In this document: one piece after another, positions 2,414 through 11,515 of the stretch
Layout of the letters: each line of letters begins with the position of its first letter
How positions within the stretch are numbered: position 1 is the first letter of the stretch
Assembly (NCBI GenBank): GCA_958431155.1
Contig: OY288106.1
Coordinates: 141,161-205,160 of the forward strand
Origin: an uncultured candidatus Porisulfidus sp.
Lineage (GTDB): Bacteria > Pseudomonadota > Gammaproteobacteria > Poriferisulfidales > Poriferisulfidaceae
Direction: 5' to 3'
Length of the DNA stretch: 64,000 nucleotides
Translations under genes and position numbers: made by a program
The notes under the pieces: model-generated
What the model was told of the DNA's origin: nothing
Database searches by the model: none
The model's input: only the letters and a program-made list of their open reading frames with translations

Positions 2414-2782
2414 CTACGGATAGACAAGGTAGTACGGAGCAGACACGGGGAACCCCGGGTAGTGATGAATTACGTCTTCTATCGGTGAGGGGCTTATAAG
2501 GTTTCGCTTGCAGTATTCCACGTACTTTCGGTACCAGCGCTCCTGTTCGCTCCACCCCCGGAAGTTCTTGGGCACGATGGTCCGGACGGAATTCAGGCTC
2601 GACCGGGCGGTTCCTCCGGCCTCGATAATCTGGCGATGACAGGCTTGGTCGGTCAGCCCGAGTTCGAGACACTCGGGATAGGTGTGTGGGGTGGAGCCCG
2701 GCACTTGTGCATGGGCTTCGTCCGCCGAACCTGCCAGGATTGCGAGGATCGACAGTAAATGAAGACTTAGTTTGATCATCGT
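2414..2782 (-). CDS. small secreted Cys-containing protein (signal peptide MIKLSLHLLSILAILAGSADEAHA), last gene of pilus operon; candidate pilus-exported substrate
   Basis: Internal Met of 171-aa ORF preceded by GGAG RBS; Sec signal peptide with AHA-Q cleavage site; 3 Cys; 13 nt downstream of minor pilin gene. Confidence 0.5.
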   Translation of the reverse strand, partial: TMIKLSLHLLSILAILAGSADEAHAQVPGSTPHTYPECLELGLTDQACHRQIIEAGGTARSSLNSVRTIVPKNFRGWSEQERWYRKYVEYCKRNLISPSPIEDVIHHYPGFPVSAPYYLVYP

Positions 2783-2795
2783 TGGAAACTCCTGC

Positions 2796-3671
2796 TCAAT
2801 ACGAGCATTTGACGAAAACGGCGATGGCGGCTGTATCCGTGGTGGCGTCTTCTTCGCCTCCGGAACCGGTGATGACTGCTCGGACCCGCCAGGAGTCGGC
2901 GAGATCGTCCATGGGCAGTTGTATGCCATGCAGGGCCCGGCCGCTCGGTGCCGAGACTCGGTTCAGCGCGGTAAGAATTCTGGGTTCCATACCTTGCGGA
3001 CAGGTCGGTTTGCGGATCAGGTCGCCGTGATTGGCCACGGTGGCGAACTGCACGGAATTGAGCAGGGTTTGTCCGGTCTCGGTCACCACGTCGCGGGCGC
3101 CGAACAGATACTGGTTGCCCAGGTTCCAGGTCGCGGTCGGAGTCGCGGAGCCGTCCAGCGGCATGAATTCGCCTCCCCCTCCGCCCGCGTCGGCAGGCTT
3201 GGGGTAATGTGCGGTAACGGTGGTGTCAGCAGCCGACGCGCCGGGAATTTTCCGTGCAAGTCCAGCGGCCTGTTCGGCGTTTTCGGTAGTGACCGCGACG
3301 GTGAAATGACTGGAATCGCAGGACATGACGTATTCGGTTTGATTTTCTTCGGCATCCAGGTAGGGGGAATGCCGGGGCACTCCCTTGAGAAGGTTGTGCG
3401 CGCCCAGTTCTACGTAGGCCCCTTCGCACAGGAGCGTCTCGAGCGGCCATTCGCCCTCGTCGATGAAATAGTGCTGCGCCGCATTGGCCAGCCGGTAGAT
3501 CTCCCCGGCCGCCTGCTCGGCCTGATCGCGCTCGATGTCGTCGGTCAGGCGGCGGGTCATGCTGAGTTGCAGGGTTCCCGCGAGGATCGAGAACAGGGTC
3601 AGGGTGACGGCCAGTTCCAGCAAACTGAAACCGGACTGTCGCGCGCACGGCTCGGTTCGGGGATGTTTCAT
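2796..3671 (-). CDS. large minor pilin (prepilin-type N-terminal methylation domain, ~290 aa; TcpB/CofB-like position)
   Basis: Leader MKHPRTEPCARQSG then FSLLELAVTLTLFSILAG (F+1, E+5); C-terminal Cys pair (KPTCPQG...VKCSY); ATGA overlap with upstream pilin gene. Confidence 0.75.
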   Translation of the reverse strand: MKHPRTEPCARQSGFSLLELAVTLTLFSILAGTLQLSMTRRLTDDIERDQAEQAAGEIYRLANAAQHYFIDEGEWPLETLLCEGAYVELGAHNLLKGVPRHSPYLDAEENQTEYVMSCDSSHFTVAVTTENAEQAAGLARKIPGASAADTTVTAHYPKPADAGGGGGEFMPLDGSATPTATWNLGNQYLFGARDVVTETGQTLLNSVQFATVANHGDLIRKPTCPQGMEPRILTALNRVSAPSGRALHGIQLPMDDLADSWRVRAVITGSGGEEDATTDTAAIAVFVKCSY

Positions 3672-9243: not shown

Positions 9244-10748
9244 CAGATCGCCACCTCGATCGGGGTGATGACGATCATCAGTTCCCGGTTGGTCCGCTCC
9301 AGGGTGGAGGCCGCAAAAGCCCGGCACAGGAAGTGATCGCAGTTCAGTTGGTGGGCGGCCTGGAGCGACCGGCTCTGGATCAGTCCGCCGAGCAGGATGG
9401 GCTTGCCGCTGCGGGTGATGGCCAGCGTGGCCATTTCCTGGATGGCGATGTTGGGCCGCACCACGGTGGAGACGCCGGTCTCGAACTCGCTGTGCGAGCG
9501 GATCGACGACAGCACCGGGACGACTTCCACCAGGATAGAGCCGTCATGGCGCATGCGCGGGGTGACGGCGATACGGAAGCCGACCCGAACATGTTCGAAC
9601 TGGGTTGACAGGATCGGTTCGATGCGACCCTCGCCGAGCACCAGGTCGGTGCTGGCGATGAAGCTGACCTCTTCCCCGTCGCCGAGGAACGTCGTCATGC
9701 CGTTGATAACGGTGAACACCGGGTCGCTGCGCACCGTGACCTGACCGTGCCGCGACAACTGCTGCACCATTGCGTTTAGGCTCCAGCGCCCGAATTCCAA
9801 TGCCGCATCGACCTCCCAGGCTCCGCTGGCGCGCACGAAGGACAGTCCGCCGGGGGCGGTGCGGGAGATCGCGATGCGCCGGTCCACCGAATCGTAGAGC
9901 ACGCCCAGATCCAGCCCGCCGCCCGCTCCTTCCTCGCGGGAAACATCGAGGATGGCGACAGCCATCAGGATCTGTCGCGCCCCCCGCCGGGTCTGCTCGG
10001 TCAGCCAGGCGTCGAGTTCCTGGATGCGTGCAACCGGGCCCCGTGCGCGCAGCAGGCCCAAGCGCTGGTCCGCGACCAGCCAGGTCTGGAGGGGTGCGCC
10101 TTGCACCGATGCCGTCCCGGTCCCGGACAAGCCCAGGATCGAACGTGCGTTGGCGAGCAGGTCGTCCCACGGGGAGTCCGTGTGGTCATAGGTCACCGTG
10201 GAGGATCCTTCTTCGGACTCCTCGTCGCCTTCGCCTTCTCTGCCGACGGCGGAGGATGACAGCGAGACGGCCTGGCCGACCTTGAGTTTCGCCTGGCCGT
10301 GGCTGGCGAAGGTGCTGACGTCCCAGGATCGTGTCAGGTAGGACGAGACGTGCACGATCGGGTGCTCGGTATCCAGTTCCAGCGCGTAGCCAGTCATCCC
10401 CTCCAGGATTTCAAGGTACTGTTGCAGGCTGAGGTTGTTGACGCGGACGCTGTAGCGTCGGTCCAGGTCGATTTCCGGGGTGGTGGGGACGACGTTCAGG
10501 GCCGGGTCGGCCCGCGTCAGGCACTCGCTCAGTGTGGCGTCCCTGAGGTTGAGGGTGACGGACAGCCCGGAATTCTCCGCGTGTGGTCGCCTGACACGGA
10601 CGAATGGCCGGGGCGGCGCCGGCGAAGCCGGGGTCGCAGCCGGGACGTCCAGCGGCTGCGGCGAATGGACCGCGTCGGGCGAGATCTGCGGTCCGGCGCA
10701 GGCGCAGAGCATGAGCGCGAGCGTGGGCGGTGCGGCGCGCGAAGTCAT
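9243..10748 (-). CDS. secretin, outer-membrane lipoprotein (BfpB/TcpC/PilN-R64 class)
   Basis: Lipobox LALMLCACAG; N0/STN-like modules; C-terminal secretin domain (VRPNIAIQEMATLAI..GKPILLGGLI..RELMIVITP); ATGA overlap with upstream gene; the 766-aa ORF N-extension is an R/P-rich artefact. Confidence 0.88.
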   Translation of the reverse strand: MTSRAAPPTLALMLCACAGPQISPDAVHSPQPLDVPAATPASPAPPRPFVRVRRPHAENSGLSVTLNLRDATLSECLTRADPALNVVPTTPEIDLDRRYSVRVNNLSLQQYLEILEGMTGYALELDTEHPIVHVSSYLTRSWDVSTFASHGQAKLKVGQAVSLSSSAVGREGEGDEESEEGSSTVTYDHTDSPWDDLLANARSILGLSGTGTASVQGAPLQTWLVADQRLGLLRARGPVARIQELDAWLTEQTRRGARQILMAVAILDVSREEGAGGGLDLGVLYDSVDRRIAISRTAPGGLSFVRASGAWEVDAALEFGRWSLNAMVQQLSRHGQVTVRSDPVFTVINGMTTFLGDGEEVSFIASTDLVLGEGRIEPILSTQFEHVRVGFRIAVTPRMRHDGSILVEVVPVLSSIRSHSEFETGVSTVVRPNIAIQEMATLAITRSGKPILLGGLIQSRSLQAAHQLNCDHFLCRAFAASTLERTNRELMIVITPIEVAI

Positions 10749-11515
10749 AGCTGTTCCAGCACGACCAGCTTCTGGTCTTCGAAGACATGCAGGACAAGTT
10801 CGTCCTGGGTCTGGTTTCCGAGTTTCCGGGTCAGTTCGGTCAGGGCGTCCCACCAAGTGGTTGAAGAAATCAGCGAGATGTGGGTTTGCAGCAGGGCGGG
10901 CGGGACTTCCGGACGCAGTTTCCAGCCGACAGGAACGATCAAGTCCAGCGCCTCCTGCAGGGTCATGTCCTCGACGAAGATCTCGGCAGGGTCGTGCAGG
11001 CTGGTCGGCAGGGACAGATCGACCGTTGCCGCGTCCGGACCCGGATCGCCCGTGGCCAGACTTTGCGCGTCTTCGATTTCGAGGGGAGGGGCCTGCCGCT
11101 CCAGCTGCGCCTCCCACTCCTCGGCCGGGTAGATGATCACTGTGCGATACAACGGGTTGACTTTCAGGCGCCAGGCGCTGCCGGCCAGGACGGCCAAGGC
11201 TTCCGACAGGTGGATGGGTCCGAGATCGCGATGGATTTCGGGCAGGGGCTGAGGCATCAGGATGGCGTTCGCCCAATGGCTGCGTCGTTCGTCTAGGCGG
11301 TAGCCCGAACGTGTCAGCAGATGGTTCACGGCCTCGCCGACGGTGGCGATTTCCTGCGGAAACCGGACTTGGGTCAGGGTGACCTGAAGCGGGTGCCGCT
11401 GCGCGTGGCTGCTGCCGGGCATCAGGTAGGCGTAACGGGCGATGGCGACGGGGTCTCCGGCAGCCAGTCCCACGCCGGGGAGGACAAGGCAGAAGGCGAG
11501 AAGAGATCCACGCAT
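10745..11515 (-). CDS. periplasmic protein with two tandem STN/secretin-N-like modules (TcpQ/BfpG position; putative secretin partner)
   Basis: Signal peptide MRGSLLAFCLVLPGVGLAAG; repeats LQVTLTQVRFPQEIATVGEAVNHLL and MTLQEALDLIVPVGWKL; first gene of operon, GGAG RBS. Confidence 0.55.
   Translation of the reverse strand: MRGSLLAFCLVLPGVGLAAGDPVAIARYAYLMPGSSHAQRHPLQVTLTQVRFPQEIATVGEAVNHLLTRSGYRLDERRSHWANAILMPQPLPEIHRDLGPIHLSEALAVLAGSAWRLKVNPLYRTVIIYPAEEWEAQLERQAPPLEIEDAQSLATGDPGPDAATVDLSLPTSLHDPAEIFVEDMTLQEALDLIVPVGWKLRPEVPPALLQTHISLISSTTWWDALTELTRKLGNQTQDELVLHVFEDQKLVVLEQL

Follow-up and report, generated by a model that had tools for sequence, protein, structure and literature searches.

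Described systems with related gene content

The R64 thin pilus and the Pil2 systems of PFGI-1/PAPI-1-class ICEs, including the chromosomal Tfp7 of B. pseudomallei, are encoded by genes in the order PilL-N-O-P-Q-R-S-T-(U)-V-M and contain a PilL N-domain, a lipoprotein secretin and PilP. The gene of a bitopic protein separates those of the secretin and PilP, a large minor pilin comes last, and the relatives of these systems are tied to conjugative elements. Some members of the class have no peptidase of their own and borrow PilD, and Tfp7 and PAPI-1 are examples of chromosomal type IVb operons without a peptidase that use an unlinked PilD (PMC3984277). In TCP (tcpQ-C-R-D-S-T-E-F) and BFP (bfpG-B-C-U-D-E), the type IVb pili of enteric pathogens, a small periplasmic protein likewise partners a lipoprotein secretin. 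TCP, through which the small protein TcpF is exported, is not known to have a retraction ATPase, and in both TCP and CFA/III a secreted partner is placed after a large minor pilin. In addition, 884 TFF systems were left as 'generic' by Denise et al. 2019, among them chimeras with parts that match different classes (PMC6668835).

Here, we analysed a 64-kb stretch of DNA (the window) from the sponge symbiont 'Candidatus Porisulfidus' (genome 1.6-2 Mb), a host more specific than the "environmental gammaproteobacterium" of the initial description. An 11-gene operon on the minus strand at positions 2414-11515 is predicted to encode a pilus-type surface filament machine. The operon shares with R64 and the ICE Pil2 systems the components listed above, the absence of a peptidase gene from the cluster as in some members, and the link of its relatives to conjugative elements, but two genes (g3 and g4) take the place of the single PilO2 gene, the ATPase is GspE/PilB-like rather than PilQ-like, and the gene order is ATPase-pilin-platform instead of ATPase-platform-pilin. 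It also differs from these systems in that the pilins carry Phe+1, PilM and PilV with its shufflon are missing, PilO2 is undetectable, and the secretin scores only 44 with the PilN model (cutoff 288). None of the curated T2SS, MSHA, T4aP or PilN models reached its cutoff on the operon proteins. By its description, the operon fits the chimeric systems within the 'generic' TFF category (PMC6668835).

Organization of the operon and its flanks

All 11 minus-strand genes of the initial annotation were recovered at their coordinates, and its view of one compact operon for a type IV filament amid housekeeping genes was borne out. The genes, here numbered g1 to g11, had been described as chained throughout by overlaps. 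Eight of the junctions do overlap, by 4 nt (ATGA/GTGA) at g1/g2, g4/g5, g5/g6, g6/g7, g8/g9 and g9/g10, by 1 nt (TGATG) at g2/g3, and by 26 nt at g3/g4, where the arrangement is identical in a relative, L001. Since g7/g8 and g10/g11 are separated by 2 nt and 16 nt, respectively, the chaining was slightly overstated. The GC content of 0.644 is close to that of the window (0.638), in agreement with the backbone-like composition proposed earlier, and no att repeat or integrase was found around the operon. As also anticipated, Pfam searches of about 45 genes and phmmer searches identified no prepilin peptidase, second (retraction) ATPase or lytic transglycosylase in the 64-kb window.

The operon is located between ychF and tRNA-Leu-tig, as reported. 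On one side it is flanked by pth-ychF, and the other side holds genes for a CPBP protease, an HTH protein, tRNA-Leu(tag) and tig. Variable DNA separates tRNA-Leu from the CPBP gene, and a truncated higA is located downstream. The CPBP (Rce1-like) intramembrane protease gene (11649-12524, minus strand; PF02517, 45.9 bits) is a conserved neighbour that lies upstream in the same orientation and is at most a putative member of the operon. It directly precedes g1 in three deeper relatives (L001, L027 and L028), as it does in 9 of the 10 Porisulfidus loci, and the linkage is kept even where the far flank switches from tig to petABC.

The AT-rich region upstream of g1 (11516-11648, minus strand, GC 0.42) contains a palindrome, ATGGT(T/C)-N8-GACCAT, at 11598-11577, followed by a -35-like TTGATT (11570-11565) and, after a 17-nt spacer, a -10-like TAATGT (11547-11542). 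Across seven Porisulfidus genomes, the palindrome arms and the two hexamers show little or no variation, while the spacer is variable. A generic promoter scan of the region gave no signal beyond chance. We infer that the region serves as the promoter/operator that drives the operon.

Envelope and alignment proteins

The first gene, g1 (10745-11515, minus strand), encodes a secreted periplasmic protein of 256 amino acids with a signal peptide, no conserved lipobox, a PilL-type N-domain (residues ~19-141) and an unassigned C-terminal domain. The N-domain scored 95 bits with TIGR03748 (NCBIfam cutoff 64) and was aligned by hhalign to the PilL of R64 and the PilL2 of ICEs (97.5%, E = 7.6e-12). The protein had been described as STN-like, but no Pfam family matched g1, TcpQ and STN included; a weak STN match is found instead in g2 (residues 85-129). 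The latter gene (9243-10748, minus strand) encodes the presumed partner of g1, a 501-residue outer-membrane secretin (PF00263, 54.7 bits, E = 1e-14) with a lipobox Cys that is conserved in every chromosomal and mobile orthologue, confirming the lipoprotein secretin of the initial annotation. The orthologue on a Methylophaga plasmid is 32% identical over the full length (E = 3e-82), and the top NCBIfam models for g2, MshL (90, cutoff 250) and PilN, are both below cutoff.

The 289-residue g3 (8374-9243, minus strand) is a bitopic inner-membrane protein and a candidate component of the GspL/BfpC/PilO2 type. In the AF2 model (pLDDT 93.6), a cytoplasmic alpha/beta domain (1-135) leads into a long transmembrane/coiled-coil helix (149-216), and the periplasmic domain after it is small. 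The N-domain starts with the secondary structure order beta-beta-beta-alpha-beta-beta-alpha-beta-alpha, which in our judgement loosely resembles an RNase H-like/actin-like core. The Foldseek matches were weak and all to actin-like folds, including the cytoplasmic domain of GspL (4pht_Y, E = 0.2), and no matches were obtained with Pfam, PDB sequences or hhalign. A modelled resemblance to GspL is weakly supported. The family has 77 representatives among 1.84 billion proteins. A small bitopic protein of 169 residues with an N-terminal transmembrane segment, g4 (7890-8399, minus strand), occupies the position of PilO/GspM/TcpD-type components; it has no match in Pfam or NCBIfam and is conserved in all chromosomal relatives, and the mobile relatives have a gene of equal size in this position. 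The assignment of the periplasmic g5 (7426-7893, minus strand; 155 residues, signal peptide) as PilP-like was upheld in part: 8 of 12 family members matched TIGR03021 in the comparison, but g5 itself scored 29.1 bits (E = 1.7e-6), below the cutoff of 34.65.

The order of periplasmic partner, lipoprotein secretin, bitopic, small bitopic and periplasmic protein followed by the ATPase thus parallels tcpQ-C-R-D-S-T and bfpG-B-C-U-D, as had been noted. The PilL N-domain of g1, the lipoprotein secretin g2 and the R64-type PilP relative g5 make up a type IVb-like envelope half. TCP and BFP are not the nearest known systems, however, since the sole curated matches are to the R64/PFGI-1 ICE class, with PilL above and PilP just below cutoff.

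ATPase, platform and pilins

The extension ATPase g6 (5726-7429, minus strand) consists of 567 residues, with a GSPII/MshEN-like N-domain, a T2SSE core (PF00437, 300 bits) and an invariant CxxC...CxxC motif (C433, C436, C468 and C471). PF05157 was not detected by Pfam in the sequence of the N-domain, although its AF2 model (pLDDT 85) yielded top Foldseek matches exclusively to PilF GSPII-B, PilB-N, XpsE-N and MshE-N. The protein scored 330 with the GspE model of NCBIfam (cutoff 630), and comparisons with PDB sequences gave 230 bits for GspE, 215 bits for PilB and 112 bits for BfpD. The score with PilQ is 115-121 bits. Scores with the mobile relatives (267-291 bits) are scarcely above those with generic GspE/PilB proteins (~255-265 bits). 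In a neighbor-joining tree built without TcpT, CofH and MshE references, the chromosomal ATPases formed a clade (bootstrap 100) that was sister to the mobile group (64), and these together with two more gene-cluster types formed a clade (89) apart from GspE/PilB, as the proposal of a non-T2SS system predicted, but apart also from BfpD/PilQ.

The major pilin g7 (5268-5729, minus strand; 153 residues, N_methyl match) has a 12-residue leader, the cleavage signal G|FTLPE and a mature part of 141 residues. The small minor pilin g9 (3668-4123, minus strand; 151 residues, N_methyl 19.2 bits) has a leader of 8 residues and the large minor pilin g10 (2796-3671, minus strand; 291 residues, N_methyl match) one of 14. 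All three carry the predicted F+1/E+5 signal (G|F..E5), with one leader longer than the 8-13 residues given previously, and the claim that the major pilin and one minor pilin are free of Cys holds for g7 and g9. The g7 family profile matched the N-helices of T4a and Geobacter pilins, MshA and GspG, with 24-39 bits for T4a pilins against 13.5 bits (E = 0.5) for TcpA, and NCBIfam models place its N-terminus as GspG/GspH-like. By sequence, both the pilins and the ATPase look unlike type IVb proteins, being T4a/T2SS-like and GspE/PilB-like, respectively. The TCP/BFP-type reading consequently stands for the envelope half and the gene order up to the ATPase but not for the ATPase and the pilins.

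Encoded between g7 and g9, g8 (4120-5265, minus strand) is a polytopic inner-membrane platform protein of 381 residues and a divergent member of the GspF/PilC family, with a weak match to PF00482 (26.3 bits, cutoff 25.2) and a score of 16.5 with the GspF model (cutoff 424). Its identity is 56% with the orthologue in L001 and 21-29% with those in the mobile operons. The g10 protein, a candidate tip/priming subunit and adhesin, matched PDB pilins in the N-helix only; C82, C118 and C289 are invariant in 13 of 13 sequences.

The last gene, g11 (2414-2779, minus strand), encodes a protein of 121 residues (~97 in the mature form) with a Sec signal peptide, invariant C37 and C47 and the motifs PxTYxxC, RWYxxYV and YPxFP, and no match in Pfam, NCBIfam or PDB. 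The 10 Porisulfidus genomes, L027 and L028 have the gene, L001 does not, and searches of the mobile relatives gave no homologue. The protein is a candidate pilus-associated or exported partner and may be exported by the filament machine. Since L001 retains the whole machine without g11, this protein is not the sole reason for the existence of the machine.

Relatives on chromosomes and conjugative elements

Ten Porisulfidus genomes carry the full set of 11 genes at this CPBP-ychF site (50-92% identity), and the three deeper relatives have the operon there as well. The dN/dS values of 0.07-0.38 are close to those of ychF and pth, and divergence of the operon runs parallel to that of ychF, pth and tig. 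The fastest-evolving genes are g9 (53-70% identity within Porisulfidus, dN/dS 0.25-0.38) and g11 (dN/dS 0.18-0.38). Conservation of the 11 genes in ten other genomes at such dN/dS values puts the operon far beyond chance, and it appears to be vertically inherited and functional in the chromosomal lineage.

The closest relatives are syntenic, unannotated operons on MOBH-type conjugative plasmids and ICEs, located at 87-94 kb of the Methylophaga thalassica plasmid NZ_CP143310 (L006) and in two metagenomic elements, L002 and L003. Both they and the window operon encode a PilL-domain protein, a lipoprotein secretin, a bitopic protein of ~270-295 residues and proteins of ~150 and ~170 residues, then the ATPase, pilin, platform, small minor pilin and large minor pilin. 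Similarity is significant for 7 of the genes g1-g10 (g1, g2, g3, g6, g7, g8 and g10), weak for g5 and a matter of position and size alone for g4 and g9. Homology is full-length for the ATPase (34-36%), secretin (26-32%), large minor pilin (314-350 residues in the mobile operons, E = 1e-13 to 1e-18), g1 and g3; the PilL N-domain of L002 is above cutoff, as in g1, and the major pilin, in the same position, is free of Cys with Phe+1, as g7. The mobile operons additionally encode a ~220-residue protein, a PilT-like ATPase of ~320-340 residues and an SLT or LysM wall hydrolase, and adjoin genes for a TraI_2 relaxase, a TraG coupling protein and ParAB/AcaB/SSB. The window operon lacks all of these, whereas it does encode g11, and its location amid housekeeping genes is fixed. 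The mobile operons, which presumably serve mating, are mostly annotated as 'hypothetical' and are themselves uncharacterised. The suggestion of a divergent or undescribed subfamily thus agrees with our results, as these systems are neither described nor annotated.

Alternative interpretations

A dedicated secretion machine of T2SS-like or TCP/CFA-III-like export type is a tenable though clearly less probable alternative to an adhesive fibre, with adhesion as a secondary function. In this reading, which matches the function suggested initially, g7, g9 and g10 would form a short pseudopilus that works as a piston and drives g11, possibly with other proteins, out through the secretin. The absence of a retraction ATPase from the window, together with a dedicated secreted protein, would fit this role equally well, and resemblance to T2SS extends to the GspE-like ATPase with its Zn motif and GSPII N-domain, the Cys-free, pseudopilin-like subunits with a GspG/GspH-like N-terminus and, weakly, the GspL-like g3. 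The g11 gene is conserved and directly follows that of the large minor pilin, and the mobile relatives keep PilT and have no detected g11 homologue, so that PilT absence and g11 presence coincide in the chromosomal lineage. Against this, every Gsp model is below cutoff (GspD 35, cutoff 351, in addition to GspE and GspF), there are only three pilins and neither GspC nor a GspI-K set, PilL and R64-type PilP are present, L001 has the entire machine without g11, and g11 has no recognisable effector domain.

Other assignments are improbable. A true but very divergent type IVb pilus of the enteric TCP/BFP/Cof class would explain the order of the first six genes, the secretin lipoprotein and weak BLAST matches to BfpB (E = 0.003), BfpD (E = 8e-32) and BfpJ (E = 2e-5), but the similarities to BfpB and BfpD are marginal, BfpG is unmatched, the leaders of the pilins are short and their mature parts small, with Phe+1 and without a disulfide, the pilin gene sits between ATPase and platform, and the cluster has no peptidase; such membership is contradicted by the pilin and ATPase tests. 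Slightly less probable again is an MSHA-type pilus, for which MshL as the top secretin model, the T4a-like pilins and the modelled MshEN-like fold of the ATPase N-domain can be cited. The MshL score is far from its cutoff, however, PF05157 is undetected by sequence, the MshM/MshN genes and the mshIJK-L order are absent, with the secretin here before the alignment genes, and PilL and R64-type PilP are foreign to MSHA. We consider least likely, and disfavour, a functionless, decaying remnant of a conjugative element integrated beside tRNA-Leu, to which the conjugative relatives, the nearby tRNA-Leu and its variable DNA, the truncated higA and the absence of the PilT-like ATPase, transglycosylase and all transfer genes could point. 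The ORFs are intact in every genome examined (L001 without g11) at housekeeping-like dN/dS, the block is kept in reduced genomes and in lineages just 57-68% identical, the promoter region is conserved, the GC content equals that of the backbone, and there is no att repeat.

Proposed function and evolution

The best explanation, to which we assign as a whole a probability of about 60%, is one operon for a complete type IV filament machine of diderm type with a secretin, which represents a chimeric subfamily that has as yet neither a name nor an annotation, with a type IVb-like envelope half and a motor and fibre of other type, that likely forms an adhesive fibre with g11 as partner. A prepilin peptidase with its gene elsewhere in the genome would process the three prepilins, which a hexameric ATPase of GspE/PilB type (g6) and the platform protein g8 would push out of the inner membrane, with g9 and g10 priming the filament and occupying its tip. 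An alignment complex of g3, with its actin-like-looking cytoplasmic domain, g4 and g5 would anchor the ATPase and reach the secretin g2, assisted by g1.

The operon probably shares ancestry with the syntenic MOBH-type operons, through a move from a transfer element to the chromosome or the reverse, and would have become fixed beside ychF in a common ancestor of 'Ca. Porisulfidus' and the lineages that are sister to it, there without the PilT-like ATPase and transglycosylase and, in part of the lineage, with g11. Its present role would most likely be that of an adhesive fibre without powered retraction, used for host or cell-cell attachment, with g11 most likely as a tip-bound or co-exported partner.

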